From Chloroflexota bacterium (lineage in GTDB: Bacteria; Chloroflexota; Limnocylindria; Limnocylindrales; CSP1-4): 64,000 nt of DNA. Numbering within the stretch: position 1 is the first letter of the stretch; every line of letters starts with the position of its first letter. The translations under genes and the position numbers were made by a program. Under the pieces are notes generated by a model. That model made no database searches and was not told where the DNA came from. It worked only from the letters and a program-made list of their open reading frames with translations. Positions 2,707 through 33,345 of the stretch are shown here, one piece after another. Where the stretch lies: the NCBI GenBank assembly GCA_046045415.1, contig JBJOLT010000032.1, positions 4,578-68,577 of the forward strand, given 5' to 3'.

Positions 2707-2727
2707 GGGTGGGCCGCCGGATCCCGG

Positions 2728-4104: not shown

Positions 4105-4139
4105 CGTCTCCTCAGCGCTCGTTCAGGAGGCCGGTACGC

Positions 4140-18463: not shown

Positions 18464-19930
18464 TCAGCCGCCGAAGGCGCGCGCGGCGTCCGCGACGACC
18501 GAGATGAGGAACGACGGGAAGAGCCCGAAGGCGACCGTCCCCACCGTCGTCGCCGCGAGCCCGGCCCAGACGAGGGAGCCGTGGCGGAGCGCGGCGACGT
18601 CGCTCGCCGGCTCGCGCATGTACATGTAGACGACGACGCGGAGGTAGTAGAAGGCGCCCATCGCCGCGTTCAGGACCGCGACGATCGCGAGGAGGCTGAC
18701 CGGCGGTCCGGCCTGGACCGCCGCGAGGATGATGTACGCCTTCCCGAAGAAGCCGGCGGTCGGCGGGATCCCCGTGAGCGAGAGCAGGAAGAGGACCATG
18801 AGGATCCCGAGGAGCGGCTCGCGACGCCCGAGTCCGGCGAAGGTGTCGAGCGAGCTCGTCACCCCCGGGCGCCGCTGGAGCGCGGCGACGACGGCGAACG
18901 CACCGAGGTTCATGAAGGTGTACGCCGCCCCGTAGTAGAGGAGCCCCTCGAGCCCGCCGATCTCCCCGGCCGCGTAGGCGGCGATCCCGACGAGCATGTA
19001 CCCGGTGTGGGCGATCGAGGAGTAGGCGAGCATCCGCTTCACGTTCGTCTGGGCGAGCGCGACGAAGTTGCCGAGCGACATCGTGAGCGCCGCGAGGATC
19101 CAGAAGACCGGGAGCCACTCGGCCTGGAGCGGGCCGAGCGCCTCGACGAAGAGCCGGATGATCAGCGCGAAGGCGCCGACCTTCGGACCGACCGAGAGGT
19201 AGCCGGTCACCGGCGTCGGGGACCCCTGGTAGGCGTCCGGTGTCCAGTAGTGGAACGGGACGGCGGCGATCTTGAAGGCGACGCCCGTCGTCATGAACGC
19301 GAGCCCGATCGCGAGCCCCGCGGAGAGCGGCGCCGTCCCGCCGGCGATCTCGCCGAGCCGGGTGGCCACCCCCTCGATCGAGGTCGTCCCCGCGATCCCC
19401 CAGACGTACGCGAGCCCGAAGAGGAAGATCGCCGAGCTGAACGAGCCGAGGAGGAAGTACTTGATCGCCCCCTCGGTGGAGAGCGCGTCGCGCTTCGCGT
19501 AGCCGGCGAGGAGGTAGCCGGGGAGGACCATGAGCTCGAGGCCGAGGAAGAGGACGAGGAGATCGCCGGAGCCGGCGATCAGCATCGCGCCGCTCAGGGC
19601 GAAGACGAGGACCGCGGCGAACTCGGCGACGGGCAGCTCGCGCGGCTCGAGGTAGTCGGGGGCGAAGAGGAGCGTGAGGGCCCCGATCGTGATGAAGAGG
19701 AGATGGAGGAAGGTCGTCAGGCCGTCGACCCGGTAGCTCCCGCCGAAGGCGCTCCCCGGGGTCGCGCCGACGATGACGGTGAGCGCGGCGACGACCGCGA
19801 GGCCGCCGAACGCCGTGACGAGCGCGGCCGGCCGGTTCCCCGGCACCACCATGTCGACGACGACGATCGCCGCGGCGACGAGGATCGCCGCGACGAGCGG
19901 GGCGATCGTGACGAGGTCGTTCAGGCTCAT
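18464..19930 (-). CDS. nuoN: NADH-quinone oxidoreductase subunit N
   Basis: 488 aa, 14 TM antiporter-like subunit; blocks 'LFLGLELMVLPGYLLAGY', 'KYFLLGSFSSAIFLFGLAYVWG'. Confidence 0.9.
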   Translation of the reverse strand: MSLNDLVTIAPLVAAILVAAAIVVVDMVVPGNRPAALVTAFGGLAVVAALTVIVGATPGSAFGGSYRVDGLTTFLHLLFITIGALTLLFAPDYLEPRELPVAEFAAVLVFALSGAMLIAGSGDLLVLFLGLELMVLPGYLLAGYAKRDALSTEGAIKYFLLGSFSSAIFLFGLAYVWGIAGTTSIEGVATRLGEIAGGTAPLSAGLAIGLAFMTTGVAFKIAAVPFHYWTPDAYQGSPTPVTGYLSVGPKVGAFALIIRLFVEALGPLQAEWLPVFWILAALTMSLGNFVALAQTNVKRMLAYSSIAHTGYMLVGIAAYAAGEIGGLEGLLYYGAAYTFMNLGAFAVVAALQRRPGVTSSLDTFAGLGRREPLLGILMVLFLLSLTGIPPTAGFFGKAYIILAAVQAGPPVSLLAIVAVLNAAMGAFYYLRVVVYMYMREPASDVAALRHGSLVWAGLAATTVGTVAFGLFPSFLISVVADAARAFGG

Positions 19931-19949
19931 CGGCCGCGGGCCTCCGCTG

Positions 19950-21491
19950 CTACCTGGCGATCGTCGCGAGCGCGTCGCCCGCGACCTGCGCGAGGACGCT
20001 CGCGACCGACCCGTCGATCAGGTCGAGGAGGAGGCCCGGGAAGATCCCGAAGACGAGCGTCAGGGCCGCGAGCGGCACGAGCGTCACCACCTCGACCGGC
20101 CGGAGGTCGGTGAGGTGACCGCCGAGGCCGCGGAGGAAGTCGGAGAGCTCCCCGGTGAAGAGCCGCTGGAACATCCAGAGGAGGTACGCGGCGCCGATCA
20201 CCATGACGATCGCCGCGACCGCGGCGGCGAGCGGGTCGTACGCGAAGGTCCCGAGGAGGACGAGGAACTCGCCGACGAAGCCGGAGAGGCCCGGAAGCCC
20301 CGCGGACGCGAAGGCGAAGAAGCCGAACGCCGCGGCGTAGACCGGGGTCGCCCCGGCGAGCCCGCCCATCTTCGCGATCGTCCGGTCGTGCGTCCGCTCG
20401 TAGATGACGCCGACGAGGAGGAAGAGGGCGCCGGTGATCAGCCCGTGGTTCACCATCTGGAGGATCGCCCCCTGGAGCCCCTGCTCCTGGAAGACGAAGA
20501 TCCCGAGGGTGACGAAGCCCATGTGGCTCACCGACGAGTAGGCGACGAGCTTCTTCAGGTCGGGCTGGACGAGCGCGACGATCGCGCCGTAGACGATCGC
20601 GACGAGGCTGAGGACGACGATCGCCGGCCCGAACGCGACGGCCGCCTCCGGGAAGAGCGGGATCGCGAACCGGATCAGGCCGTAGCCGCCGAGCTTCAGG
20701 AGGATCGCCGCGAGGATCACCGAGCCGGCGGTCGGCGCCTCGACGTGCGCGTCGGGGAGCCACGTGTGGAACGGGAACATCGGGACCTTGATGGCGAAGG
20801 CGAGGAAGAAGGCGAGGAAGGCGAGGATGCCGAACGTCCCGTCGAAGCCCCCGGTCGCCGCGAAGGTCGTGAGCTGCTCGACGTCGAACGCGCCGGACCA
20901 GGAGCCGGTCGCGACCTGGTGGGTCCAGGCGCTCGCGATGATCGCGACGAGCATGAGGAGCGACCCGACGAGCGTGTAGAGGACGAACTTGATCGTGGCG
21001 TAGATCCGGTTCGGGCCGCCCCAGATCCCGATGATCAGGTACATCGGGACGAGGACGATCTCCCAGAAGATGTAGAAGAGGAAGAGGTCGAGGGAGACGA
21101 AGACGCCGATCATCCCCGCCTCGAGGACGAGGAAGGAGGCCATGTACTCCTTCACCCGCTCGCCGATCGGCCCGAAGCTCGCGAGGATCGCGATCCAGCT
21201 GATCGTCGTCGAGAGGACGACGAGGACGGCGGCGAGCCCGTCGACCCCCACCTTGTACTGGATCCCGAAGACCGGGATCCACTCGGCGACCTCGACGAAC
21301 TGGTAGCCGGCCGCGTCCGGCCGGAAGCCGGCGAGGAGCGCGAGCGAGACGACCCAGTTCGCGAGCGCCACCACGAGCGCGAGCCGGCGGACCGTCGCGA
21401 CGCTCCCGCGCGGGACGAGCGCGACCGCGACCGCCCCGACGAGCGGGAGGAAGGTGACGATCGAGAGGATCGGGAGGCCGTTCAGCTCCAT
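19950..21491 (-). CDS. nuoM: NADH-quinone oxidoreductase subunit M
   Basis: 513 aa antiporter-like subunit, 'HTWLPDAHVEAPTAGSVILAAILLKLGGYG'. Confidence 0.9.
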   Translation of the reverse strand: MELNGLPILSIVTFLPLVGAVAVALVPRGSVATVRRLALVVALANWVVSLALLAGFRPDAAGYQFVEVAEWIPVFGIQYKVGVDGLAAVLVVLSTTISWIAILASFGPIGERVKEYMASFLVLEAGMIGVFVSLDLFLFYIFWEIVLVPMYLIIGIWGGPNRIYATIKFVLYTLVGSLLMLVAIIASAWTHQVATGSWSGAFDVEQLTTFAATGGFDGTFGILAFLAFFLAFAIKVPMFPFHTWLPDAHVEAPTAGSVILAAILLKLGGYGLIRFAIPLFPEAAVAFGPAIVVLSLVAIVYGAIVALVQPDLKKLVAYSSVSHMGFVTLGIFVFQEQGLQGAILQMVNHGLITGALFLLVGVIYERTHDRTIAKMGGLAGATPVYAAAFGFFAFASAGLPGLSGFVGEFLVLLGTFAYDPLAAAVAAIVMVIGAAYLLWMFQRLFTGELSDFLRGLGGHLTDLRPVEVVTLVPLAALTLVFGIFPGLLLDLIDGSVASVLAQVAGDALATIAR

Positions 21492-21495
21492 CGCG

Positions 21496-23529
21496 TCACC
21501 GCCCCACGATCGCGAGGTACGACGCCGCGACGACGATCAGGCCGACCGCGATCCCGAGCGCGTAGTTCTGGACCCGGCCGGTCTGGATCCGACGGAGCTC
21601 GCGACCGGTCGACGCGGCGAGCGTCCCGATCCCGTTCACCGTGCCGTCGACGATCGCCCGGTCGAACCACCAGAGCGAGGCCGCGACCCGCCCGCCGATC
21701 CGGATGAAGAGGAGGTCGTTCAGCTCGTCGAACCACCACTTGTTCAGCGAGGCCCGGTAGAGGAACGGGGCGCGGGCGCTCAGGGCGGCGACCCGCTCCG
21801 GCCGCGGCTCGGCGCGGATCGGTCCGAGCGAGACGCCGAAGAGCCGCCATGCGACGCCGATCGCGGTGGCCGCGAGGGCGACCGTCAGGAGGATGAGCGC
21901 GCCGTCGACGCCGAAGAGCTCGATCGGCTTCTCCACCGTCCCGAGCATCACCATCGTCTCCTCGAAGATCGGATGGAGCCAGTGGGCGATCGGCGAGTCG
22001 ACCCCGAGCGGGACCCCGAGCGCGACGCCGATCCCGGCCGAGAAGACCGCGAGGACGAGGAGCGGGACCGTCATCGAGCGGGGCGACTCGTGGATCCGCG
22101 GCTCGACCGCCGGGTCGACCCGGCTCGAGCCCCAGAACGTGAGCCCCATGAGGCGGAACATGTAGAAGGCGGTCATCGCCGCGACGACGAGCCCGATCGC
22201 CCAGACGACGTACGCGCCGTTCTTGAAGGCGACGTGGAGGATCTCGTCCTTCGAGAAGAAGCCGGCGAGCGGCGGGATCCCCGCGATCGCGAGCGAGCCG
22301 ATGAGCATCGTCGCGTACGTGATCGGGATCCGCCTCGCGAGCCCGCCCATCCGGCGCATGTCCTGCTCCTCGTGGACCGCGTGGATCACCGAGCCGGAGC
22401 CGAGGAAGAGGAGCCCCTTGAAGAAGCCGTGGGTCATCAGGTGGAAGATCGCCGCGGTCCACGCTCCGACGCCGAGCGCCGCGAACATGTAGCCGAGCTG
22501 GGAGAGAGTGGAGTAGGCGAGGACCCGCTTGATGTCCGTCTGCGTGAAGGCGATCGAGGCGGCGAGGATCGCGGTGAAGATCCCGATCGCCGCGACGATC
22601 GTCATCGCCTCCGGGCTGTGGCCGAAGAGCGGGTTGAGGCGCGCGACGAGATAGACCCCCGCGTTCACCATCGTCGCCGCGTGGATGAGCGCGGAGACCG
22701 GGGTCGGGCCCTCCATCGCGTCGGGGAGCCAGACGTGGAGCGGGAACTGGGCGCTCTTCCCCATCGCCCCCATGAAGATGAGGAGCGCGAGCCCGGTGGC
22801 GACGAGATGATCGAGCTCGTGGACCCGCTCGAGGACCTCGCGGATGTCGAGCGTCCCGAGCGTGACGAAGACCCCCATGATCCCGAGCGCGAAGCCGACG
22901 TCGCCGACCCGGTTCACGAGGAACGCCTTCTTCGCCGCGAGCGCGGCGGAGCGCTTCCGGTACCAGAAGCCGATGAGGAGGTACGAGCTGAGCCCGACGA
23001 GCTCCCAGGCGACGAAGATGACGAGGAGGCTGTCCGCGAGGACGAGGAGGAGCATCGAGAACATGAAGAGGTTCAGGTAGGCGAAGAACCGCCAGTACCC
23101 GGGGTCGTGGCTCATGTAGCCGAGCGAGTAGACGTGGACGAGCATGCCGATCGTCGTCACGACGATGAGGAGGCACGCGGTGAGGTTGTCGACGAAGAAG
23201 CCGGCGCTCACGTCGAAGTCGCCCGCCGGGATCCACTCGAAGAAGGTGATCCCGTAGCCGTGGTGGCCGAACGGGCCCGCACCGGAGATCGAGGCGACGG
23301 CGACCGCCATCGCGGCGAGCCACGAGCCGACGACCACGAGGACGGGGACGAGGCTCGCGGCCCGGATCCCGTAGCTCGCCTGGAGCCGGCGCCCGAAGAG
23401 GGCCGTGAAGGCGAAGCCGGCGATCGGCAGGAGCGCGATCAGCGGGATGAGGAGGTCGTGGATCCCGCCCGAGGCGGCCTCGGCCGTGGCCTCGGCGGCG
23501 GCGAAGAGGGTCGGGAGTCGCTCGGGCAT
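21496..23529 (-). CDS. nuoL: NADH-quinone oxidoreductase subunit L
   Basis: 677 aa, 'HVWLPDAMEGPTPVSALIHAATMVNAGVY', long C-terminal amphipathic helix region. Confidence 0.9.
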   Translation of the reverse strand: MPERLPTLFAAAEATAEAASGGIHDLLIPLIALLPIAGFAFTALFGRRLQASYGIRAASLVPVLVVVGSWLAAMAVAVASISGAGPFGHHGYGITFFEWIPAGDFDVSAGFFVDNLTACLLIVVTTIGMLVHVYSLGYMSHDPGYWRFFAYLNLFMFSMLLLVLADSLLVIFVAWELVGLSSYLLIGFWYRKRSAALAAKKAFLVNRVGDVGFALGIMGVFVTLGTLDIREVLERVHELDHLVATGLALLIFMGAMGKSAQFPLHVWLPDAMEGPTPVSALIHAATMVNAGVYLVARLNPLFGHSPEAMTIVAAIGIFTAILAASIAFTQTDIKRVLAYSTLSQLGYMFAALGVGAWTAAIFHLMTHGFFKGLLFLGSGSVIHAVHEEQDMRRMGGLARRIPITYATMLIGSLAIAGIPPLAGFFSKDEILHVAFKNGAYVVWAIGLVVAAMTAFYMFRLMGLTFWGSSRVDPAVEPRIHESPRSMTVPLLVLAVFSAGIGVALGVPLGVDSPIAHWLHPIFEETMVMLGTVEKPIELFGVDGALILLTVALAATAIGVAWRLFGVSLGPIRAEPRPERVAALSARAPFLYRASLNKWWFDELNDLLFIRIGGRVAASLWWFDRAIVDGTVNGIGTLAASTGRELRRIQTGRVQNYALGIAVGLIVVAASYLAIVGR

Positions 23530-23535
23530 CGGCCG

Positions 23536-23847
23536 CTACTCCCGCATCGAGGCGTACTCGTCGACGAGCGGCGTCCGCCGGTTCCGGTAGATCGCGATGA
23601 CGATCGCGAGCCCGACGGTCGCCTCGGCGGCCGCGACCGCCATGACGATGATCACGATGACCGCGCCCTGGCTCGCGAGCGCCGGGATGAACGCGCCGAA
23701 GGCGAGGATCGCGAGGTTGACGGCGTTCAGCATCAGCTCGATCGACATGAGCATGCTGATCGCGTTCCGGCGGGCGAGGAACCCGAACGTCCCGATCGCG
23801 AAGAGGAGCGACGCGAGGATGAGGTACGCGTCGAGCGAGTCGGTCAC
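23536..23847 (-). CDS. nuoK: NADH-quinone oxidoreductase subunit K
   Basis: 103 aa, three TM helices, 'LMSIELMLNAVNLAILAF...AAAEATVGLAIVIAIYR'. Confidence 0.9.
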   Translation of the reverse strand: MTDSLDAYLILASLLFAIGTFGFLARRNAISMLMSIELMLNAVNLAILAFGAFIPALASQGAVIVIIVMAVAAAEATVGLAIVIAIYRNRRTPLVDEYASMRE

Positions 23848-24380
23848 GCGCTCCCCTCGTCATCGCGGCGCGCGAGGAAGATCCCGCCGATGACCGCGGC
23901 GAGGAGGAGGACGCTGACGATCTCGAACGGAAGGACGAACGACTCGAAGAGCGTCCTCGCGATCTCGTTCGTCGACGCCGGGACCGCCTCGTCGACCTCG
24001 CCCCAGTCGGTCGCGACGGCGGCGAGCGCCATGACGGCGGCGAGGACGACGGCCGCGATCGCGGCCGGGATCGCCTGGGTCTGGAAGACGAGCCGAGCGG
24101 GCGCCGCCTTCGACTGGGTGAGCATGACGGCGAAGAGGATGAGGACGCTGATCGCGCCGATGTAGACGAGGACCTGCGCGGCGCCGACGAGCGGGGCGCC
24201 GAGGAGGATGTAGAGGCCGGCGAGGCCGCCGAAGCAGACGATCATCGCGAGGCCGCAGCGGATGATGTCGCGCATCGTCACGACGAGGAGGCCGGCGACG
24301 AGCATCAGCCCCGCGAACGCGAGGAAGAGGACGTCCTCCCACGGGATCCCGACGATCGGGACCGTTGCCGATAGCGCCAC
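23844..24380 (-). CDS. nuoJ: NADH-quinone oxidoreductase subunit J (deduced GTG start preceded by GAGGGAG)
   Basis: 178 aa C-terminal part of the over-extended 1193-aa ORF; 'VLFLAFAGLMLVAGLLVVTMRDIIRCGLAMIV...VLVYIGAISVLILFAVML' NuoJ-like; ATGA overlap with nuoK. Confidence 0.8.
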   Translation of the reverse strand: MALSATVPIVGIPWEDVLFLAFAGLMLVAGLLVVTMRDIIRCGLAMIVCFGGLAGLYILLGAPLVGAAQVLVYIGAISVLILFAVMLTQSKAAPARLVFQTQAIPAAIAAVVLAAVMALAAVATDWGEVDEAVPASTNEIARTLFESFVLPFEIVSVLLLAAVIGGIFLARRDDEGSA

Positions 24381-24448
24381 CCAGCTCCCTCTCTCGTGCT
24401 CAGCCGGCTCGTGCCGGTCGTCCCATCCCCGACCGGCGCTCCGGGACC

Positions 24449-27079
24449 CTACCCGTGTCCGTGCCCGTCGTGGCCCCCGTGACCGTGGCCGTTGCCGTTC
24501 GCATGGGCGTGGCCGTTGCCGCCGCCGTTCCGGGCGAAGCTCGCCGGGAGGACCGGGAGGTTCGACCCCGCGAGGGCTCGCTGCTCGCCCGACGCCCGGA
24601 GCGCCCACTGGCGCTCCCGCCGGACGTACGTCATCTCCGTCTCCTGGTCGATCCGCGCGAGGGCGAGGAGGTCGATCATCGGGTTCTCGCGGCTCTCGTG
24701 GGCGAGCTCGAAGTCGGCGCCGTCGCGGAGCGCGTCGTACGGGCAGGCGTCGACGCAGATCCCGCAGAGGATGCAGCGGCTCTCGTCGACCTCGTACTTC
24801 TGGAGGACCCGCGGCTTCGGCATGAGCGCGCCGGTCGGGCACGTCTCCGCGCACCTGCCGCACGAGACGCACGGCGTCTCGTTCAGGCTCATGTCGAGCG
24901 GCGTCGTCACGAGCGTGTCGAAGCCGATCCGCATGAAGTCGTAGCACGCGGCGCCCACCACCTCGGCGCAGACGTTCGCGCAGCGACCGCAGTCGATGCA
25001 GCGGGACGGCTCGCGGAGGATGAACGCGTGGCTGTCGTCGCGGATGTAGTCGTGGTTCTTCCCGGTGAAGCGGTTCTCCGTGACGCTCCGGTAGCCCGCC
25101 CCCTGATGGTGGCCCTTCTCGAGGGTCCGGAGCGTGGTCCCGTACTCGATGCCGAGCCGGCGGAGGTCGCAGAAGCCGATCGCCTCGCAGGTGCACTGGA
25201 GGCAGCGGGTCGACTCGGCGACCGCCTCGGCCGGGGTGTACGGCAGCTCGTACTCGACGTAGCTCCGGTTCCGGTCGTGCGCCTCCATCGCCGTCATCCG
25301 GTAGCGCGGCTCCTTCGCCTCGCTCGTGAACGGGACGATCGAGAGGAACTCCGGCTGCGGCTCGGCGAGCGTCTGGCGCGTCCGGATCGAGGCGAGGTCC
25401 GCGCCGCGGAGGTATGCGTCGACCGCGTACGCGGCGCGGCGCCCCTCGGCGATCGAGGCGACGACCGTCTGGGCGCCGGTCCGGACGTCGCCCGTCCCGA
25501 AGACGCCGGGGCGGTCGGTCGCGAACGTGACGGCGTCGGCCTTCAGCCGGCGGTTCTTCGTCGCCGTGACACCGACGCTCCCCGGGTGCTCGGCCCAGTC
25601 GAGCTCCGGCCCCTGGCCGATCGCGAGGAGGACGCGATCGCACGGGATCGTGAACTCCGTCCCCGGCGCCGGCTCCGGGCGGCGCCGGCCGGACGCGTCG
25701 GGCTCGCCGAGCTTCATCCGGATGAACTCGATCCCGGTTACCTTCCCGGACTTCTCGTCGACGATCACCCGGGTGGGGCCGGCCTGGAAGATCGCCGTCA
25801 CCCCCTCCTCGATCGCCTCGTGGACCTCGCCGGCGGCAGGCATGTCCTTCATGTCGCGCCGGTAGACGAGCGTCACCTCCTTCGCCCCCTGGCGGACGGA
25901 GGTGCGGACGCAGTCCATCGAGGTGAAGCCGCCGCCGACGACGACGACGCGGCTCCCCTTGTGGCCGGGGTACTCGAGGCCGAGCGTCGCGGTCCGGAGG
26001 TACTCGAGGCCGTCGATGACGCCGTCGGCCTCCTCGTTCGGGACGCCGAGCTTGTTCGTGTCGTAGCAGCCGATCGCGACGACGACCGCGTCGTAGCCCT
26101 GGTTCTGCAGGTCGTCGAGCGTGAAGTCGCGCCCCAGCCCCTGGTCGCAGACGATCCGGCCGCCGAGCCGGACGACGCTCTCGTACTCCGCCTCGAGGAC
26201 CTCCACCTTCGGGAGCCGGTACTGCGGGATCCCGTAGCGGAGCATCCCGCCCGGGGCGGGGTCGCGCTCGAAGACGGTGACCTCGTGCCCGCTGAGGAGC
26301 AGGTAGTAGGCGGACGACATCCCGGCCGGGCCGGAGCCGATCACCGCGACGCGGCGGCCCGTCGGCGCCTGGCGCTCGAACGGGACCGGCGGGTCGATCC
26401 CGTCGTTCAGCTGCGCCTTGAGGACCTGGTCCCCCGCGTACCGGTGGCTGTCGCGGATCGCGATCGCCTCGTCGACCTCGTCGCGCCGGCAGTGCTCCTC
26501 GCACGGGGCGGGGCAGACGCGGCCGAGCACCGACGGGAACGGGATCGTCCGCTTGAAGACCCGGGCCGACTCCCGCCAGTTCCCCTCGGCGTTCTGCTTG
26601 AGGAACCCGGGGATGTCGATGTGGCTCGGGCACTTGTTCTGGCAGGGCGGGAGGCAGTACGCGTTGTGGTCGCTGAAGATCAGCTCGAGGTTCGTCCGCC
26701 GGAGTCGGCGGACCTCCTCGGTCTGCGTGCTGACGACCATCCCCTCGGCCGCGGCGAGGGAGCAGCTGATCGGCGGGTTCTCGATCCCCTCGACCTCGAC
26801 GACGCACATCCGGCAGGCCCCGAAGCCGGGGAGCTTCGGCTCGTAGCAGAGGGTCGGGATCTCGATCCCGTTGTCGCGGCAGACCTCGAGGATCGTCTGG
26901 CCCTCGTGGCCCTCCACGACCCGGCCGTCCACCTCGATCCGGATCCGCGGCGTCGACTGCGGCCGCTGGGGCGAGACGGTGGTGAGGAGCCGCTCCGCGC
27001 GGGGGTCGGCGGCGGTCGCGGGCGCGCCGTCGCCGGTCGCCGGGGGCTGCGCGCCTGGTCGGATCAGCAGGTCGGTCAT
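24449..27079 (-). CDS. NuoG-like Fe-S subunit chimera: NuoG/HydA-type N-terminal 2Fe-2S + His/Cys cluster, complete GltD-like (glutamate-synthase small-subunit-type) FAD/NAD(P)H oxidoreductase module, three CxxCxxCxxxC(P) 4Fe-4S motifs, His/Gly/Asn-rich C-terminal tail; no molybdopterin-like domain
   Basis: 'TLCYEPKLPGFGACRMCVVEV...ISCS' (2Fe-2S); 'SDHNAYCLPPCQNKCP'; 'VCPAPCEEHC' + 'VAVIGSGPAGMSSAYYLLLSGHEVTVFERDPAPGGMLRYGIP' + 'VVVVGGGFTSMDCVRTS' (GltD Fer4_20 + two Rossmann sites); 'CIDCGRCANVCAEV', 'CVSCGRCAETCPTGAL', 'CILCGICVDACPYDAL'; tail 'NGGGNGHAHANGNGHGHGGHDGHGHG'. Confidence 0.8.
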   Translation of the reverse strand: MTDLLIRPGAQPPATGDGAPATAADPRAERLLTTVSPQRPQSTPRIRIEVDGRVVEGHEGQTILEVCRDNGIEIPTLCYEPKLPGFGACRMCVVEVEGIENPPISCSLAAAEGMVVSTQTEEVRRLRRTNLELIFSDHNAYCLPPCQNKCPSHIDIPGFLKQNAEGNWRESARVFKRTIPFPSVLGRVCPAPCEEHCRRDEVDEAIAIRDSHRYAGDQVLKAQLNDGIDPPVPFERQAPTGRRVAVIGSGPAGMSSAYYLLLSGHEVTVFERDPAPGGMLRYGIPQYRLPKVEVLEAEYESVVRLGGRIVCDQGLGRDFTLDDLQNQGYDAVVVAIGCYDTNKLGVPNEEADGVIDGLEYLRTATLGLEYPGHKGSRVVVVGGGFTSMDCVRTSVRQGAKEVTLVYRRDMKDMPAAGEVHEAIEEGVTAIFQAGPTRVIVDEKSGKVTGIEFIRMKLGEPDASGRRRPEPAPGTEFTIPCDRVLLAIGQGPELDWAEHPGSVGVTATKNRRLKADAVTFATDRPGVFGTGDVRTGAQTVVASIAEGRRAAYAVDAYLRGADLASIRTRQTLAEPQPEFLSIVPFTSEAKEPRYRMTAMEAHDRNRSYVEYELPYTPAEAVAESTRCLQCTCEAIGFCDLRRLGIEYGTTLRTLEKGHHQGAGYRSVTENRFTGKNHDYIRDDSHAFILREPSRCIDCGRCANVCAEVVGAACYDFMRIGFDTLVTTPLDMSLNETPCVSCGRCAETCPTGALMPKPRVLQKYEVDESRCILCGICVDACPYDALRDGADFELAHESRENPMIDLLALARIDQETEMTYVRRERQWALRASGEQRALAGSNLPVLPASFARNGGGNGHAHANGNGHGHGGHDGHGHG

Positions 27080-27091
27080 CGTCGGGGTCTT

Positions 27092-28414
27092 CTAGCTGCG
27101 GCCGCCCACCGGGACGGCGATCGGGCGGCAGACGCCGGCGGGGCAGGCGCTCCGCACGAGATGGTCGTCGAGCTCCGAGCGGAAGTATCGCATCCCACTC
27201 GTGAACGGGAGCGTCGCGAGCCGCTCGTGGTCGCAGAGGCCGCTCGCGCTCACGTCGTGCGCGAGGTCCTCGATGAGCGCGGGGTCGGTGGGCTTCGGCA
27301 CGCCGGTGACGATCCGCTCGCCGATCTCGTAGAGGCGGCGGAGCCCGATCCGGCAGGGGATCGTCTTCCCGCAGGCCTCGTCGGCGCAGAAGCGGGTGAG
27401 GAGCCGGGCGAGGTCGACGACGCATGCCCGCTCGTCGACCGCGACGAGCGAGCCGGAGCCGACGTGCGCACCCGCCTCCCGGAGCGGCTCGAAGTCGTAC
27501 GGCGTCGCGGCGAGCGTCGCCGGGAGGAGGCCGCCCGACGGGCCGCCGACGAGGAACGCCTTGAGGGCGTGTCCCTTCCCGGTCGCCCCGGCGAGGGCGG
27601 CGATCTCGCCGAGCGGCGTCCCGAGCGGCACCTCAGCGACCCCGGCGCCCGCCGGCGTCCGGAGCGCGACGAGCGCCGTCCCGGGGCTTGCGGACGAGCC
27701 CGTCTTCGCGAACGCGGCGGCCCCGTGGGCGAGGATCCACGAGGCGGCGGCGAGCGTCTGGACGTTCGCGACGACCGTCGGCTTCCCGAAGAGCCCGCGG
27801 ATCGCCGGGTGCGGCGGCCGCTGCTCCGGCTGGCCGCGCTTCCCCTCGAGCGCCTTCAGGAGGACGGTCTCCTCGCCGAGCATGTACGCGCCGGCGACCG
27901 GCGTGACGTGGACCGTCAGCTCGCGGCCGCTCGCGGCGTAGTCGCTCCCGAGGAGGCCCGCGTCGGTCGCGTGCCCCACCGCCGCCGTGAGCCGGCGGAC
28001 GACCTCCGTCTCCTCGGCGCGGACGGCGATCCACGCCTCGGCCGCACCGACGGCGTACGCGGCGATCGCGACGCCCTCGATGACCGCGTACGGGTTCGTC
28101 TCGAGGAGCGCACGGTCGGTCCCGGCCGCCGGGTCCGCCCCGTACCCGTTCGCGACGACGTAGCGGGTCGCGACGGGCTGGGTGGCGCAGACGCGCCACT
28201 TCTCCGCGGCGGGGAAGCCGGCGCCGCCGCGACCGCGGAGCCGCGCCTCGGCGACGACGGCGATCGTCCCCTCCGGCCCGAGCCCCACCGCCGCACGGAG
28301 GCCGGCGAACGCGCCGGCTGCGACGGCGGCGTCGAGGTCGGTGGGGTCGGCGGGCGTGGCGGCCGGGAGGAGGATCCGCGGCCACGCGGCGGGGGTCGGG
28401 AGGATCGTCGTCAC
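27092..28414 (-). CDS. nuoF: NADH-quinone oxidoreductase subunit F-like (51-kDa flavoprotein), divergent (GTG start)
   Basis: 'LRGRGGAGFPAAEKW', 'AGAYMLGEETVLLKALEGKRGQP', 'ACGKTIPCRIG' and 'SGLCDHE' align to the NuoF FMN/NADH and N3 regions. Confidence 0.8.
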   Translation of the reverse strand: MTTILPTPAAWPRILLPAATPADPTDLDAAVAAGAFAGLRAAVGLGPEGTIAVVAEARLRGRGGAGFPAAEKWRVCATQPVATRYVVANGYGADPAAGTDRALLETNPYAVIEGVAIAAYAVGAAEAWIAVRAEETEVVRRLTAAVGHATDAGLLGSDYAASGRELTVHVTPVAGAYMLGEETVLLKALEGKRGQPEQRPPHPAIRGLFGKPTVVANVQTLAAASWILAHGAAAFAKTGSSASPGTALVALRTPAGAGVAEVPLGTPLGEIAALAGATGKGHALKAFLVGGPSGGLLPATLAATPYDFEPLREAGAHVGSGSLVAVDERACVVDLARLLTRFCADEACGKTIPCRIGLRRLYEIGERIVTGVPKPTDPALIEDLAHDVSASGLCDHERLATLPFTSGMRYFRSELDDHLVRSACPAGVCRPIAVPVGGRS

Positions 28415-29071
28415 TCAGCGGCCCCCGAGCGCGGCGTCGAGGGCGCCGACGTAGGCGGCCTCGGTCGGGCGGAGCGCGGCCGCCGCCGGCGCCGCACCGC
28501 TCGCGGCCGTCGGCGGCTCGAGGCGGAGGTGCCGGTAGTAGGTGGCGGTGCCGTAGATCATCGCGTACCAGGCGCCGGTCCGGTGGCTGATCCGCTTGAG
28601 CGCGGCGACCGGGAGGTAGCCGTACGCCGCCTGGACCCCCTCGAGGATCGGGAGGAGCGCCTTCGGGTCCTCGCCGTGCTCCTCGAGGACGCGGTCGACG
28701 TCGGCGAGGTCGATCGGCTCGAAGCGGACGTACGCCGGGTCGGGGACCGGGCGGCCGGAGCGGCGGAGCGCCGATTCCTCTCGCCGCTCGGCGTACGTCT
28801 CGGTCGCGCCCCAGTGGACGTGGTAGCGGCCCTTCGTGTCGACGCCGCCCATGTCGATGCACTCGATCGGGCAGGCCTGCGCGCACTGGAAGCAGGTCTC
28901 GCACTTCAGCGTCCCGAACTCGTCGTAGAGGAGCTGGAGCCGCCCGCGGAAGCGGACCGCCTCGTCGGGCGCCACCTCCGGGTAGCGGACGGTGATCTTC
29001 GGCGCGAAGAAGCGCCGGAGGGTGAGCGCCATCCCCCTGACGATCCCGAGGCCGGGCACGAGGCTCATCAT
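28415..29071 (-). CDS. 218-aa chimera: NuoI-like N-terminal half (one CxxCxxCxxxCP motif only) fused to a NuoE-like N-terminal helical region lacking the 2Fe-2S thioredoxin-like domain
   Basis: 'MALTLRRFFAPKITVRYPEV...VRFRGRLQL...KCETCFQCAQACPIECI' is NuoI-like; no second Cys motif; 'ALLPILEGVQAAYGYLPVAALKRISHRTGAWYAMIYGTATYY' matches the NuoE helical region (LLPILHxxQExxGYLP...VYGVATFY) but no Cys follows; ATGA/adjacent coupling to nuoH and nuoF. Confidence 0.7.
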   Translation of the reverse strand: MMSLVPGLGIVRGMALTLRRFFAPKITVRYPEVAPDEAVRFRGRLQLLYDEFGTLKCETCFQCAQACPIECIDMGGVDTKGRYHVHWGATETYAERREESALRRSGRPVPDPAYVRFEPIDLADVDRVLEEHGEDPKALLPILEGVQAAYGYLPVAALKRISHRTGAWYAMIYGTATYYRHLRLEPPTAASGAAPAAAALRPTEAAYVGALDAALGGR

Positions 29072-30414
29072 CCCCTCCCGTTCACGACGACGATCGCGGC
29101 GGCGGTCACGAAGAGGTTGAGGAGCGCCGCGGGGGTGAGCCACTTCCAGGCGAACCCCATGAGCTGGTCGATCCGGACCCGCGGGAGCGTCCCGCGCATC
29201 CAGACGAAGATGAACACGAAGACGTACGACTTGACGAAGAACCAGAGGAGGCCGATCACCCAGTCGAGGCTCACGACCGCGAGGCCGAGGACGCCGGCGA
29301 CGGCGACGAGGTTGAAGAGGACGAAGCCGATGACGAGCGCCCGGACGAGCGAGACGCGGCTGTCGAGCATCCAGAACGGGAGCGCGAGCCCGACGATCGC
29401 GAGCGGCGGGACGACGAGGAGGAGCGCGAGGAGGCCGATCCCGAGCGAGCCCGGGTCGAGCGCCACAGAGACCGGGAAGGGCCAGTCGAACGGGGCCGTC
29501 CAGCCGCCGAAGAAGAGCGTCACGGCGAGCGCCGAGACGATGAAGACGTTCACGTACTCGGCGAAGAAGAAGAAGCCGAAGCGCATCCCGGAGTACTCGG
29601 TCGCGAAGCCGGCGACGATCTCCGAGTCCGCCTCGGTCAGGTCGAACGGGGTCCGGTTCGCCTCCGCCGTCGCGGCGATGAAGAAGATGAGGAAGCCGAG
29701 CGGCTGGCGCCAGACGTTCCAGTCGAGGATCGAGCCGGACTGCATCTCGACGATCGCGTTCAGGCTCATCGTCCCCGCGAGGAGGATGAGGCCGACGACC
29801 GAGAGCGTGAGCGGGATCTCGTAGCTGACGACCTGGGCGGCCGCCCGGAGCCCGCCGATGAGCGAGTACTTGTTGTAGCTCGCCCAGCCGGCCATGAGGA
29901 GGCCGACGACGCTCAGCCCCCCGATCGCGAAGAAGTAGAGGAGCCCGATGTTGAAGTCCTGGCCGAAGAGGCCGGGCGCGAACGGGATGACCATCATCGT
30001 CATCACGCACGAGAGGAACGTGACGACCGGCGCCCACGTGAAGACGAGGCCGTCGGCGCCCGTCGGGGTGAAGTCCTCCTTCACGAGCACCTTCAGCCCG
30101 TGGTTCACCGACATGAGCGACCCGAACGGCCCGACCCGGTCCGGCCCGATCCGAAGGTTGATCAGCGCGATCACCTTCATCTCCATGTAGATGATGAGGA
30201 AGGCGGTCGGGACGCTCAGGAGGAGGACGGCGGTCGCCGCGACGACGAAGCGGATGATCGGGAGGTTCGCGAGGAGCGCCTCGAGGATCGTCCCGCCGAG
30301 GAGCGCGATCACCGCGACGAGCGAGGCGGTCACCGCGAGCAGGACGGGGACCGCGACGAAGACGACCTTCCCCGGGAGCGTGAGGCGGCTCCAGGCGCGG
30401 GAGGCGACCGTCAC
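29068..30414 (-). CDS. nuoH: NADH-quinone oxidoreductase subunit H (deduced GTG start overlapping nuoD stop)
   Basis: 448 aa, 'GLLYFFAIGGLSVVGLLMAGWASYNKYSLIGGLRAAAQVVSYEIPL', 'EADSEIVAGFATEYSGMRFGFFFFAEY' NuoH hallmarks. Confidence 0.85.
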   Translation of the reverse strand: MTVASRAWSRLTLPGKVVFVAVPVLLAVTASLVAVIALLGGTILEALLANLPIIRFVVAATAVLLLSVPTAFLIIYMEMKVIALINLRIGPDRVGPFGSLMSVNHGLKVLVKEDFTPTGADGLVFTWAPVVTFLSCVMTMMVIPFAPGLFGQDFNIGLLYFFAIGGLSVVGLLMAGWASYNKYSLIGGLRAAAQVVSYEIPLTLSVVGLILLAGTMSLNAIVEMQSGSILDWNVWRQPLGFLIFFIAATAEANRTPFDLTEADSEIVAGFATEYSGMRFGFFFFAEYVNVFIVSALAVTLFFGGWTAPFDWPFPVSVALDPGSLGIGLLALLLVVPPLAIVGLALPFWMLDSRVSLVRALVIGFVLFNLVAVAGVLGLAVVSLDWVIGLLWFFVKSYVFVFIFVWMRGTLPRVRIDQLMGFAWKWLTPAALLNLFVTAAAIVVVNGRG

Positions 30415-31652
30415 TTGTCGATCCCTCCCATGATCGGGTCGAGCGACGCCATCACCGCCATCGTGTCGGCGACGAGGTTCCCCGGCATGAGGAGCGGGAC
30501 GAGCTGGAGGTGGACGAACGACGGGTCGTGGATCTTCAGCCGGAACGGCTGGTCGGTCCCGTCGCTGATCGCGTGCATCCCGTAGACGCCGCGCGGCCCC
30601 TCGACCGCCCCCCACGCGCGACCGGGCCGCGGCCGGAGGAGGCGGGGGAGCTTCGCCATGACCGGCCCGTCCGGCATCTCGTGGAGGCACTGGTCGATGA
30701 TCCGGAGGCTCTGGCGGACCTCGTCCATCCGGAGGAGGTAGCGCGCGAGGCAGTCCCCCTCGCTCCGGGTGGGGATGTCGAACTCGAGCTCCGGGTAGAC
30801 CGAGTACGGGTGCGCGCGCCGGAGGTCGAACGGGACGCCGGTGGAGCGGAGGTTCGGCCCGGTGACGCACATCCGGATCGCCGTCTCGCGGTCGATCGTC
30901 CCGAGGCCGCGCATCCGGCGGACGAAGATCTCGTTCTCGTTCAGGAGCCCGAGGTTCGCCTCGATCTGGCTGCCGGCCCGCGTCATCCACTCGCCGAGGC
31001 GGCTCATGAACTCGTGGTTCAGGTCGCCGTTGACGCCGCCGATCCGGAAGTAGTTGAAGAGCATCCGCTGGCCCGTGAGGGCCGCGAGCATCTCCACGAT
31101 CTCGTCGCGCTCGATGAAGCTGTAGAGGATCGGGGTGAGGCCGCCGAGATCGAGCGCCATCCAGCCCATGAAGAGCGCGTGACTCTGGATCCGGAGGAGC
31201 TCGGTCGAGAGGACCCGGATGTACTCGGCGCGGCGCGGCACCTCGACGTCGAGGAGCTTCTCGAAGGCTATCACCGCCGCCCACTCGCTGAAGAGCGAGC
31301 TGACGTACTCGAGCGGGTCGACCTGGCTGATGCACTGGTGGTAGTCGGCGTTCTCGCAGAGCTTCTCCACCCCGCGGTGGAGGTAGCCGAGGACCGGGTC
31401 GATGTCGATGACCTGCTCGCCGTTCAGCTTGAGGACGACCCTGAGGACGCCGTGCGTCGAGGGGTGCTGCGGCCCCATGTTGATGAACATCTCGCCGTCG
31501 CCGAGCGTGTAGAACTCGGCTTCCCGCTCGGTCCGCGGCGGGTACGGCGGGACCGGCTCGAAGACGCCGATCTCGGCGTCGAGCGTCACGCGCGGGTCGT
31601 CGGCCGACTGGTGCGCCGGCATCTCGTACGGGGTGTGCGGCCCGGCCGTCAT
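30411..31652 (-). CDS. nuoD: NADH-quinone oxidoreductase subunit D (49-kDa)
   Basis: 'FINMGPQHPSTHGVLRVVLKLNGEQV', 'DPVLGYLHRGVEKLCE', C-terminal 'RLKIHDPSFVHLQ' blocks; starts at MTAGPHT (ATGA overlap with nuoC). Confidence 0.9.
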   Translation of the reverse strand: MTAGPHTPYEMPAHQSADDPRVTLDAEIGVFEPVPPYPPRTEREAEFYTLGDGEMFINMGPQHPSTHGVLRVVLKLNGEQVIDIDPVLGYLHRGVEKLCENADYHQCISQVDPLEYVSSLFSEWAAVIAFEKLLDVEVPRRAEYIRVLSTELLRIQSHALFMGWMALDLGGLTPILYSFIERDEIVEMLAALTGQRMLFNYFRIGGVNGDLNHEFMSRLGEWMTRAGSQIEANLGLLNENEIFVRRMRGLGTIDRETAIRMCVTGPNLRSTGVPFDLRRAHPYSVYPELEFDIPTRSEGDCLARYLLRMDEVRQSLRIIDQCLHEMPDGPVMAKLPRLLRPRPGRAWGAVEGPRGVYGMHAISDGTDQPFRLKIHDPSFVHLQLVPLLMPGNLVADTMAVMASLDPIMGGIDK

Positions 31653-32197
31653 GCGCCGATCCTTCGGACGACCGCGTCCGCCGCCGTGTTCGTCGGCACC
31701 TGCGGCTGCTCGATGTGGCGGACCCCGCCGCCGGGCGAGCGCGCCGCGTCGTCCGGGAGGTGGAAGTCCTTCCGGAGCGGGAAGCTCCGGTACTCGGGCG
31801 GCATGTAGATCCGGCGGAGGTCGCGGTTCCCCTCGAACACGATGCCGAACATGTCGTACGTCTCGCGCTCCATCCACTCGGCGCCCTTCCAGAGGAACGT
31901 CACCGAGGGGATGCGGGGCTCGTCGCGGGGGAGCTCCACCGCGATCACCCGGAGCCAGTCCGGCGAGGCGGGGCTCCAGAGGTGGTACGTGACCTGGAGC
32001 GTCGTCCCGGTGTCGACGCCGCAGAGGTCGGCGAGCATCTGGAAGCGGAGCTCGGGATCCTCGGCGAGGATCCGCATCACGTCCGGGACGTCCGCCGGCC
32101 GGACCCTGATCTCCGTCTCGTCATGGCGCTGGCGGACGGGGCCGACGAGCCGGTCGCCGAGGCTCGCCCCGAGTCGGCGCCGCAGGGCGCGGTCCAT
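31649..32197 (-). CDS. nuoC: NADH-quinone oxidoreductase subunit C (30-kDa)
   Basis: 182 aa, 'LADLCGVDTG...VTYHLWS', 'WKGAEWMERETYDMFGIVFEGNRDLRRI'. Confidence 0.85.
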   Translation of the reverse strand: MDRALRRRLGASLGDRLVGPVRQRHDETEIRVRPADVPDVMRILAEDPELRFQMLADLCGVDTGTTLQVTYHLWSPASPDWLRVIAVELPRDEPRIPSVTFLWKGAEWMERETYDMFGIVFEGNRDLRRIYMPPEYRSFPLRKDFHLPDDAARSPGGGVRHIEQPQVPTNTAADAVVRRIGA

Positions 32198-32200
32198 CGG

Positions 32201-32905
32201 TCAGACGCCCTCCGGGACGGTCGGGCCGACGGGCTTCTCCGCCCACTGGCCGCGGCGGTCCTTGACGATCTGCTGGAGCTTCATCATCCCGTAGATCAGC
32301 CCCTCGGGACGCGGCGGGCAGCCGGGGATGTAGACGTCGACCGGCATCACCCGGTCGATCCCCTCGATCGTCGAGTAGCTCCGCTTGTAGCGGCCGCCGG
32401 AGCACGTGCAGTCGCCCATCGCGACGCACCACTTGGGCTCCGGCATCTGCTCCCAGAGGCGGACGAGCGGCCCGGCCATCTTCGTCGTCAGCGTCCCCGC
32501 CACGATGAGGACGTCGGCCTGTCGCGGGCTCGCGCGGAAGGGGAACATCCCCCAGCGGTCCATGTCGTTCTTCGAGGTCGCCGCCGACATCATCTCGATC
32601 GCGCAGCACGCGAGGCCCGAGAGGAGCGGCCAGAGGCTGTTCATCCGGATGAGGTCGAGGACGTAGTCCGCCTTCGTCGGGATCACCTCGAGCGCGCCGC
32701 CCCAGCGGGCGTCGTCCTTCCGCTCGAGACCGGCGAGCTCCACCTGGCGGAGGTGGGTGACGTCCGATCCCGCCCCGCCCTGGTAGGCGAGCGGGTCGGT
32801 CGACGCCCAGAGGGTGTTCGGGACGACGATCGGCTCGACGAGCGCGTCCGACTCGCGGACGACGAGCGCCCCCGGGATCTCGCCGCCCCCGTCGCCCGGC
32901 CTCAC
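32201..32905 (-). CDS. nuoB: NADH-quinone oxidoreductase subunit B (deduced GTG start overlapping nuoA stop)
   Basis: 'SLWPLLSGLACCAIEMM', 'KWCVAMGDCTCSGGRY', 'VDVYIPGCPPRPE' (N2 cluster Cys set). Confidence 0.85.
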   Translation of the reverse strand: MRPGDGGGEIPGALVVRESDALVEPIVVPNTLWASTDPLAYQGGAGSDVTHLRQVELAGLERKDDARWGGALEVIPTKADYVLDLIRMNSLWPLLSGLACCAIEMMSAATSKNDMDRWGMFPFRASPRQADVLIVAGTLTTKMAGPLVRLWEQMPEPKWCVAMGDCTCSGGRYKRSYSTIEGIDRVMPVDVYIPGCPPRPEGLIYGMMKLQQIVKDRRGQWAEKPVGPTVPEGV

Positions 32906-33345
32906 CGCCACGACAGGACCCCCTTCCGCCACGCGTACGCCAGCCCGAGGAGGAGGATCGCGACGAAGACGAGCATCGTCACGAAGCCCGCGAGGAGGAG
33001 CTCCGGGAAGACCGTCGCCCAGAGGTAGATGAAGATCACCTCGATGTCGAAGGCGACGAAGAGCAGGGCGTAGATGTAGAACGAGACGCCGTACCTGCCG
33101 TGGGTGTCGCCGAACGTGTCGATCCCCGACTCGTACGGGAGCCCCTTGTGCGGGTCGCCCTTCACGCGGTGCGAGAGCAGCCACGCGGCGGCGATCGTGA
33201 GGAAGACGAACGAGACGCCGGCGAAGGCGAACCCGACGACGTACCAGATGCCGGTCAAGCGTTCCTCGCTCTCGAAGGGGCGGGGGCGATGGCGGGCGCG
33301 ACGGGCGGCCGGGACGAGCGCGGTCGGCGTCGCACGCTCGCGCAT
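32902..33345 (-). CDS. nuoA: NADH-quinone oxidoreductase subunit A (start uncertain: ATG at 33345 or later)
   Basis: Three-helix membrane protein 'GIWYVVGFAFAGVSFVFLTIAAAWLLS...DTFGDTHGRYGVSFYIYALLFVAFDIEVIFIYLWA'. Confidence 0.75.
   Translation of the reverse strand: MRERATPTALVPAARRARHRPRPFESEERLTGIWYVVGFAFAGVSFVFLTIAAAWLLSHRVKGDPHKGLPYESGIDTFGDTHGRYGVSFYIYALLFVAFDIEVIFIYLWATVFPELLLAGFVTMLVFVAILLLGLAYAWRKGVLSWR

Follow-up and report, generated by a model that had tools for sequence, protein, structure and literature searches.

This study deals with a complex I operon in a 64,000-nucleotide stretch of DNA (the window) from a Chloroflexota bacterium of the CSP1-4 lineage (NCBI GenBank assembly GCA_046045415.1, contig JBJOLT010000032.1, positions 4,578 to 68,577 of the forward strand). 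Between nuoH and nuoJ this operon contains a cassette of three atypical genes, here called P1, P2 and P3. Judging from their sequences, the NuoI subunit is split and not absent, with its two halves located at the outer ends of the cassette. We consider it probable that a cassette of the Nfn/Stn type was placed within nuoI, and that the resulting enzyme works with a two-chain NuoI as a non-bifurcating, proton-pumping NAD(P)H:quinone oxidoreductase, a function that is predicted from its domains and motifs. In the open-access literature that we searched, neither a split NuoI nor an Nfn/Stn cassette inside a nuo operon is described. With respect to this literature, the locus is a complex I variant not described before, as had been supposed in a first, sequence-only reading of the window.

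The split of NuoI is most directly visible on a single family model. P1 matches positions 1-66 of TIGR01971 and the C-terminus of P3 positions 71-116, i.e. the two matches are complementary, and the TYKY chain of plant complex I (7ar7_I) is also covered in two pieces, residues 23-87 by P1 and residues 99-148 by the P3 C-terminus. When residues 1-88 of P1 and 757-830 of P3 are rejoined in silico, one end-to-end match to TIGR01971 is obtained (positions 1-116 of 121) with 97.5 bits at a cut-off of 113, and the rejoined NuoI halves of two distant loci reach 111.9 and 100.9 bits at the same cut-off. NuoI is not made as one polypeptide: the first of its CxxCxxCxxxCP motifs is found in P1 and the second at the C-terminus of P3, and there is no other NuoI gene within the operon. 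The statement of the sequence-only reading that nuoI is missing was wrong, since its halves are present in P1 and at the P3 C-terminus (residues ~758-830). The count of motifs points in the same direction. In folds of the HydA/NuoG type, motifs A and B jointly ligate two clusters. Because motifs A and B of P3 pair with each other in such a fold, its motif C is left without a partner on the same chain, and P1 carries exactly one orphan motif. For P3, this pairing of A with B is supported by its collinearity with the solved NfnA and StnC. If the cassette is removed and the halves are rejoined, the gene order becomes A-B-C-D-H-I-J-K-L-M-N, which is the order known from 11-subunit complex I-like enzymes (PMC3144371).

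The other parts of the complex I core are complete. The operon comprises 13 genes, all on the minus strand, which run from position 33345 to position 18464 in the order nuoA-B-C-D-H, P1, P2, P3, nuoJ-K-L-M-N (Table 1), and this bears out the layout with three atypical genes between nuoH and nuoJ that had been read before. NuoA, B, C, D, H, J, K, L, M and N are all named by NCBIfam; the earlier count of eleven canonical core genes has to be corrected to ten, because the eleventh, NuoI, is the split one. By sequence inspection, NuoB holds the ligands of the N2 cluster (CC..., GDCTCSGG and GCPP), which together with the quinone-site motifs in NuoD indicates that the Q-module is intact. Adjacent genes overlap by 4 nucleotides or are separated by gaps of 0-19 nucleotides, with the P3/nuoJ junction (68 nucleotides) as the sole exception, and these overlaps and short gaps make the translational coupling proposed earlier plausible. 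Within the window (G+C content ~73%) we found no second canonical nuo operon and no further nuo genes, the remainder being unrelated housekeeping genes.

P1 had been described as a NuoI/NuoE chimera with one Fe-S motif, and the domain scans agree. Its residues 10-79 correspond to the first half of NuoI/TYKY and consist of an N-terminal amphipathic helix, which we take to be the element that sits on NuoH, an RFRG motif and a single CxxCxxCxxxCP motif (C57, C60, C63 and C67), with C71 as an additional cysteine. The four motif cysteines are invariant down to relatives with 30% identity. Residues 118-188 are best matched by NfnC of Caldicellulosiruptor (9bov_C), StnA of Sporomusa (8oh5_A) and NfnC of Thermococcus (9n5u_C). 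The thioredoxin-like 2Fe-2S domain is deleted; there is no cysteine beyond residue 71, and hence the corresponding 2Fe-2S cluster (N1a/C1) is gone. In the AlphaFold 2 model of P1, the N-terminal helix and the NuoE-like bundle are confidently predicted, with a predicted local distance difference test score (pLDDT) of 84-97 for the bundle, which superposes on the N-terminal domains of NfnC/StnA at a root-mean-square deviation of ~1 Å. The linker between both parts of P1 (HVHWG..ERREESALRRSGRPVPD) is more conserved than would be expected of a passive tether.

P3 aligns in one stretch to NfnA and StnC, with residues 46-779 matching 9bov_A (E = 3e-161) and residues 45-781 matching 8oh5_C (E = 2e-144). 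The domain scan returned Fer2_4, Fer4_20/Pyr_redox_2 (GltD) and 4Fe-4S motifs. No molybdopterin-oxidoreductase-like domain was found in P3 with Pfam and NCBIfam, and the match to TIGR01973 is limited to the N-terminal 100 residues, all of which agrees with the earlier picture of a NuoG-like protein with a GltD insert and without the molybdopterin-type domain. However, the view that this NuoG/GltD chimera is a local invention did not hold: it is the architecture already known from NfnA/StnC (Kumar et al., 2023, PMC10482914; Li et al., 2025, PMC11829005), in which the formate dehydrogenase-like (Fdh-like) domain has been swapped for the C-terminal half of NuoI. The GltD domain contains two [4Fe-4S] motifs, a flavin adenine dinucleotide (FAD) motif GSGPAG and an NADPH motif GGGFTSMD...VYRR, and is matched by the chains 4ylf_B, 5jca_L, 9bov_A and 8oh5_C. 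It is followed by the domain of the HydA/NuoG type with motif A (C694-C704) and motif B (C737-C747). The collinearity with NfnA/StnC spans residues 46-757 (~710 residues) and stops after motif B. Past the shared CPTGA of this motif, the next element in NfnA/StnC is a CxxCxxxC that belongs to their inactive Fdh-like domain. In P3 the next element is NuoI sequence including a DFE segment, and the protein terminates ~120 residues beyond motif B in this NuoI-like stretch, i.e. the Fdh-like domain is not present. Among 32 sequences, P3 shows no variation in any Fe-S cysteine or in its FAD and NADPH motifs. The extreme C-terminus is rich in His and Gly (Table 1); P3 orthologs likewise end with a His/Gly-rich segment, its length being variable, and this may represent a metal-binding tail.

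P2 has a NuoF fold but scores under the family cut-off (TIGR01959, 324 versus 559 bits), in line with its earlier description as a divergent NuoF. Its closest PDB chains are of the BfuB type, namely NfnB 9n5u_B (residues 117-538), 9bov_B, HydB and StnB, and not respiratory NuoF. According to these alignments, P2 is a trimmed NuoF of the BfuB/NfnB type that comprises the core for flavin mononucleotide (FMN) and NAD(H) and the B1/N3 cluster region. Only residues 117-538 of NfnB are covered and P2 ends there, such that both the BfuB N-terminal domain and the C-terminal B3/B4 domain are lacking; the domain scan gave no Fer4 or 2Fe-2S_thioredx match in P2. In a family profile of 71 orthologs, the derived motifs NGYGADP, FCxxEACGK[TS]IPCRI and LCDHERL are invariant, and conservation extends to the glycine-rich GRGGAG loop, K72/W73 and GAYMLGEETVLLKALEGKRGQP. 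Because the unusual motifs are invariant and the glycine-rich loop and GAYMLGEETVLLKALEGKRGQP are kept, P2 appears to be a remodelled protein under selection and not a decaying one.

The cassette resembles several known systems, all of which differ from it in defined points. With NfnABC/StnABC (9bov/9bp5 from Caldicellulosiruptor saccharolyticus, 9n5u from Thermococcus sibiricus and 8oh5 from Sporomusa ovata) it shares the gene order C-like, B-like, A-like, with P3 similar to NfnA/StnC, P2 similar to NfnB/StnB/HydB and the C-terminal part of P1 similar to the N-terminal domain of NfnC/StnA. Compared to these enzymes, the C1 2Fe-2S domain as well as the N-terminal and B3/B4 domains of the B-subunit are missing in the window, and P3 lacks the Fdh-like domain of the A-subunit (tetramerisation; clusters C1/C2 or A5). 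Moreover, the cassette is fused to NuoI halves at both ends and embedded in a nuo operon, and its product is expected to be a non-bifurcating enzyme that is bound to the membrane and reduces quinone. The canonical 14-subunit complex I (NuoA-N/Nqo1-14) also has the full Q-module, the membrane arm with A, H, J, K, L, M and N, and a chain that receives electrons from a flavoprotein with the NuoF fold and from an N-terminal Fe-S domain of the NuoG kind. There, the input module is encoded as nuoD-E-F-G-H, whereas it is found between nuoH and nuoJ in the window (D-H-P1-P2-P3-J), where NuoI is distributed over two chains, N1a and the molybdopterin-like domain of NuoG are absent, and the GltD domain provides an extra FAD/NADPH site. 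Within the NuoEFG superfamily, the input module of the window falls into another branch (Bfu) and therefore looks independently acquired. Our results also support the earlier suggestion that an operon of the 11-subunit type took up a flavin-based input module for NAD(P)H from a foreign source, and this outside the canonical place.

The 11-subunit NUO11/NDH-1 enzymes (Moparthi and Hagerhall, 2011, PMC3144371) have the same gene order as the window once the cassette is taken out and NuoI is rejoined, but their NuoI is intact and their operon has no dedicated NAD(P)H module. A Bfu-type input module of complex I has been predicted as Nuo-Bfu in Geobacter, Deferribacteres, Planctomycetes and Nitrospirae; it belongs to a 14-subunit A-N operon in which the place of NuoEFG is taken by BfuABC, whose bifurcating BfuBC core is conserved (Schut et al., 2022, PMC9304861). 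The window is set apart from it by the description in this paper, which mentions neither a GltD domain nor a split NuoI. A flavoprotein of the GltD type with NAD(P) binding near the NuoI position, as in the window, occurs in Mbx-like operons, where it stands in for the NuoI homolog (Degli Esposti, 2015, PMC4758237). However, these belong to the Mbx/Mrp-type family, parts resembling NuoF, NuoE or NuoG are absent from them, and their description does not include a split NuoI (PMC4758237).

In our view the simplest history is insertion followed by loss. The nuoI gene of an operon with 11 subunits would have received an in-frame insertion of a Bfu-type operon with the order C-like, B-like, A-like, and domains that were no longer needed would have been lost afterwards. 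P1 would then be NuoI(N-half)::NfnC(N-terminal domain), P2 a trimmed NfnB/NuoF, and P3 NfnA/StnC::NuoI(C-half). The two NuoI halves are predicted to reassemble into one 2x[4Fe-4S] ferredoxin fold, in which N6a and N6b would each be ligated by three cysteines from one chain and one cysteine from the other. Reassembled in this way, NuoI would restore the path to N2 in NuoB and would fasten the input module to the Q-module (NuoH, NuoB, NuoD), thereby serving for docking in place of the C-terminal domain of NuoG. In NfnABC, the N-terminal domain of NfnC sits in a cleft between the Fdh-like domain and the Rossmann fold of NfnB (PMC11829005). Because the C-half of NuoI replaces the Fdh-like domain and the N-half is tied to the NfnC domain, both NuoI tethers should converge on one place.

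The electron route in NfnABC is FAD-A7-A6-A3-A2-A1-B1-FMN, with a side branch A4-A5 leading to the Fdh-like domain (PMC11829005). In the enzyme of the window, NADPH would reduce the FAD of the GltD domain and NADH would probably reduce the P2 flavin, with one Fe-S wire common to both. The former A4 side branch would become the exit, from which electrons would pass via N6a/N6b and N2 to quinone and drive pumping by NuoH/J/K/A/L/M/N. As both flavins share one wire, the enzyme may also equilibrate NADH and NADPH. Taken further, one could assume that it works mainly in reverse, i.e. that quinol oxidation driven by the proton-motive force serves the reduction of NADP+ (or NAD+), or that it is chiefly a built-in NADH/NADPH transhydrogenase. 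This would fit to the ancestral Nfn/Stn enzymes, which are reversible transhydrogenases (PMC10482914), and to homologs carrying both flavins on a single wire (PMC11829005), but neither lithotrophy genes nor any other need for such a mode are visible in the window, where the operon is flanked by housekeeping genes, and the operating direction is not readable from sequence. We regard a mainly reverse mode as rather improbable and favour NAD(P)H oxidation coupled to quinone reduction.

The module had also been called bifurcating-like in the sequence-only reading. This is correct for its ancestry in the Bfu family but not for the site. The minimal bifurcation site consists of [B1-FMN-C1], from which the ferredoxin route leads via C1 to B3/B4 (PMC11829005). 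Since C1 and B3/B4 are deleted, both the bifurcation site and the ferredoxin route are impossible, and the enzyme is therefore expected to be non-bifurcating. A bifurcating or confurcating enzyme of the Nuo-Bfu type, which co-oxidises NAD(P)H and reduced ferredoxin, could be argued for from the descent of the cassette from the bifurcating Bfu family, from the membrane-bound Nuo-Bfu enzymes predicted by Schut et al. (2022, PMC9304861) and from two distant loci (L081 and L082, see below) that kept C1 and a B5-type domain. Nevertheless, it would need the [B1-FMN-C1] site and the C1 to B3/B4 route (PMC11829005), and the cassette of the window has lost the C1 domain and lacks the B3/B4 domain and the BfuB N-terminal domain, which makes such an enzyme very improbable. 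Given the absence of the C1 2Fe-2S cluster, the B3/B4 domain and the BfuB N-terminal domain, we rejected bifurcation.

The arrangement is not restricted to the window. A pattern scan of a one-genome-per-species collection yielded 572 confirmed matching stretches, 80 of which were fetched and used for the locus comparisons. According to their labels, almost all of these 80 loci belong to metagenome-assembled genomes (MAGs) of Limnocylindria, Limnocylindrales or Chloroflexota, and to the extent of the contigs the gene order was identical in every one of them. P1 has thousands of full-length relatives with ~75% identity. The mean identity to the window amounts to ~82% for P3 compared to ~83% for NuoB and NuoD, while P1 (74%) and P2 (66%) are similar to NuoC and NuoJ. 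The input module had been named degenerate, which does not describe it well, because P3 is as conserved as NuoB/NuoD and the derived P2 motifs are invariant; on the same grounds, a decaying N-module was rejected. Two loci (L034 and L066) and one protein (P0216) with ~75-83% identity to the Limnocylindria genes are labelled as Polarisedimenticolia, Patescibacteria group or Vitreimonas, which probably reflects wrong binning or naming in the source records.

These comparisons also bear on the question whether the NuoI-like ends could be mistaken. As 4Fe-4S motifs are widespread and give hits to a large number of families, the cassette might encode an independent soluble oxidoreductase that happens to lie inside the operon with generic ferredoxin motifs at its ends, or the arrangement might be due to an assembly error or a frameshift. 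This explanation is hardly credible and largely refuted, because the ends have NuoI-specific features, including the N-terminal helix, RFRG and the DFE segment after motif 2, because the operon has no other NuoI gene, and because the same arrangement is found in 80 loci and deep relatives. No remnant in an alternative frame has to be invoked. A frameshift that hides a canonical gene, which the first reading had named as a possible objection, is not present either: P1 has conserved relatives and 80 of 80 loci are alike. A frameshift or assembly artefact was rejected in view of the thousands of full-length P1 relatives and the same order in the 80 loci.

Deeper relatives were sought exhaustively among 50%-identity cluster representatives. 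A few distant proteins share the NuoI-N::NuoE fusion (28-34% identity to P1), and X::NuoI-C fusions were found there too. Their loci have a G+C content of 49-68%, and every subunit is 29-57% identical to its counterpart in the window. In some of them the 2Fe-2S domain of NuoE is complete and NuoF is canonical. L081 has a complete NuoE domain together with a canonical BfuB including the N-terminal domain. In L082, nuoH is followed by I-N::E with a complete 2Fe-2S NuoE, a BfuB of 1048 amino acids, a HoxU-like protein of 265 amino acids and nuoJKLMN. In L085 (GCA_016190715.1, a Chloroflexi MAG; positions 6481-14281), L087 and L088, the order is A-B-C-D-H, I-N::E, F, NfnA-like::I-C. Because these distant relatives (29-57% identity) share the fusions, the split of NuoI is old, with Limnocylindria showing its most reduced form. 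In L082, the 1048-amino-acid protein (positions 2076-6023 of this locus) combines NuoF with a thioredoxin-like domain and, at the C-terminus, a GltD domain, and the C-half of NuoI ends the HoxU-like protein; hence, GltD is located on another subunit than in the window.

Several observations weigh against our interpretation. The spacing between motifs B and C in P3 resembles that in a usual dicluster ferredoxin, and both motifs are covered as one unit by Pfam Fer4_7. The half-ferredoxin stretch of P1 has a pLDDT below 50 in the AlphaFold 2 model, which fits to a half-domain but is no proof, and the model of P3, built from 32 homologs with 80-87% identity, reached a mean pLDDT of only 41. In two distant lineages (L085 and L087/L088), nuoJKLMN are not found downstream of the cassette. 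In P2, the flavin/NADH loop is strongly derived, with NGYGADP where the canonical sequence is NADEGDPG, and the second canonical N3/B1 cysteine is replaced by Thr or Ser (ACGK[TS]IPCRI), while three of the four canonical ones are kept. Because of this derived loop and the missing canonical N3 cysteine, NADH oxidation by P2 is uncertain. In L085, the next genes encode a flavin reductase, a GYD protein and pyruvate:ferredoxin oxidoreductase; in all three of these distant loci the membrane-arm genes may be located elsewhere, or the complex may be smaller.

The derived state of P2 leads to the assumption that NADPH is the sole physiological donor and that P2 is a silent structural remnant which holds P1 and P3 together, i.e. 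that the enzyme is a dedicated proton-pumping NADPH:quinone oxidoreductase. It would be in agreement with P3 being better conserved than the rest of the cassette and having canonical, invariant motifs for FAD and NADPH, with the low conservation of P2, which at 66% is the least conserved subunit, and with the changes in its NADEGDPG loop and N3 motif. However, these altered motifs are themselves invariant in the 71 orthologs, and the conservation of the GRGGAG loop, K72/W73 and GAYMLGEETVLLKALEGKRGQP is unexpected in a pure scaffold. Furthermore, a new cysteine, Cys343, is found five residues upstream of the lost one in 67 of 71 orthologs; it is perhaps a ligand swap, and such compensation suggests that the 4Fe-4S cluster was retained. 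NADPH as the only donor thus seems unlikely to us, and we prefer an enzyme with two input sites, one for NADPH in P3 and one, probably for NADH, in P2.

The positions of the genes and domains are given in Table 1, together with further features of the window. NuoB and NuoD have N-terminal extensions of ~60-70 and ~50 amino acids, respectively, that of NuoB being lineage-specific, and NuoH is ~100 amino acids longer than in relatives, with the extra part in its C-terminal region. These three extensions are kept among the 80 loci and absent from the distant relatives with split NuoI; they may provide the new module with additional surfaces for docking. A promoter and terminator scan of the operon gave no signal above chance. 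Apart from the operon, the window contains a stop-to-stop frame of 1791 amino acids, in which domains of protein O-mannosyltransferase (PMT) are found only at ~1088-1543 and Pfam gives no match elsewhere; it adjoins a family-2 glycosyltransferase, and the true gene may be shorter.

Table 1. Genes and protein segments of the complex I operon, and further features, with their positions in the window.
Feature	Position	Strand	Basis or remark
nuoA	32902-33345	-	NCBIfam NuoA models, E = 7e-26; start codon uncertain
nuoB	32201-32905	-	TIGR01957, 217 bits, above cut-off
NuoB N-terminal extension	32700-32905	-	
nuoC	31649-32197	-	TIGR01961, 116.6 bits
nuoD	30411-31652	-	NF008974, 440 bits; TIGR01962, 422 bits
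NuoD N-terminal extension	31500-31652	-	
nuoH, 448 amino acids	29068-30414	-	NF004741, 320 bits, above cut-off
NuoH extra part, C-terminal region	~29150-29500	-	
P1, 218 amino acids	28415-29071	-	
P1 residues 1-88, NuoI N-terminal half	28808-29071	-	TIGR01971 positions 1-66/121; 7ar7_I residues 23-87
P1 residues 89-117, linker ERREESALRRSGRPVPD	28721-28807	-	alignment; near-invariant within Limnocylindria
P1 residues 118-190, NuoE/NfnC/StnA-type N-terminal helical domain	28502-28720	-	PF01257 2-63/145; 9bov_C 19-87
P2, 440 amino acids	27092-28414	-	
P2 residues 343-354, region of Cys343	27353-27388	-	
P3, 876 amino acids	24449-27079	-	
P3 residues 45-120, [2Fe-2S] domain, A1/N1b equivalent	26720-26947	-	PF13510, E = 3e-21; cysteines invariant
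P3 residues 138-560, GltD/NfnL-type domain	25400-26668	-	PF14691 + PF07992; PRK12814, 556 bits
P3 residues 620-757, CxxCxCx5C + HydA/NuoG-type 2x[4Fe-4S] domain	24809-25222	-	PF22117; alignment to 9bov_A, 8oh5_C
P3 residues 758-830, NuoI C-terminal half	24590-24808	-	TIGR01971 71-116/121; 7ar7_I 99-148, E = 3e-13
P3 residues 848-876, His/Gly-rich tail NGHAHANGNGHGHGGHDGHGHG	24452-24538	-	sequence inspection
nuoJ	23844-24380	-	NF005168, 125 bits
nuoK	23536-23847	-	NF004320, above cut-off
nuoL	21496-23529	-	NF005141, 728 bits, above cut-off
nuoM	19950-21491	-	TIGR01972, 588 bits
nuoN	18464-19930	-	TIGR01770, 418 bits
Stop-to-stop frame with PMT domains	3978-9353	+	

How complex I acquired its NADH module is a classic question of bioenergetic evolution. 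The locus described here would be a second, independent solution, with a different donor (Bfu/Nfn), another insertion point and another docking principle, namely covalent tethering via the split NuoI rather than via the C-terminal domain of NuoG. We put forward tentatively, as a possibility that falls somewhat short of our expectation for the enzyme itself, that complex I gained a nucleotide-oxidising module here for a second time and independently of NuoEFG by insertion of an entire Nfn/Stn-type operon, that the split NuoI serves as wire and anchor, that NADPH is respired via the GltD-type FAD in addition to NADH or in its place, and that this is the standard complex I of Limnocylindria, a class abundant in soil and freshwater. 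The less reduced relatives with a full NuoE form an evolutionary series in which these steps are open to study. Judging by sample labels, Limnocylindria occur in many soil and freshwater metagenomes, and the predicted respiratory enzyme would feed NADPH straight into their proton-pumping chain. In public annotations the cassette genes appear as 'ferredoxin', 'NAD(P)H-dependent oxidoreductase subunit E', 'FAD-dependent oxidoreductase' or 'formate dehydrogenase major subunit', and because pipelines use names such as the first and the last two of these, the redox balance of Limnocylindria may be mismodelled. If true, the two-chain NuoI would furthermore represent a natural 2x[4Fe-4S] ferredoxin fold made from two polypeptides, which bears on the origins of ferredoxins and on protein engineering.

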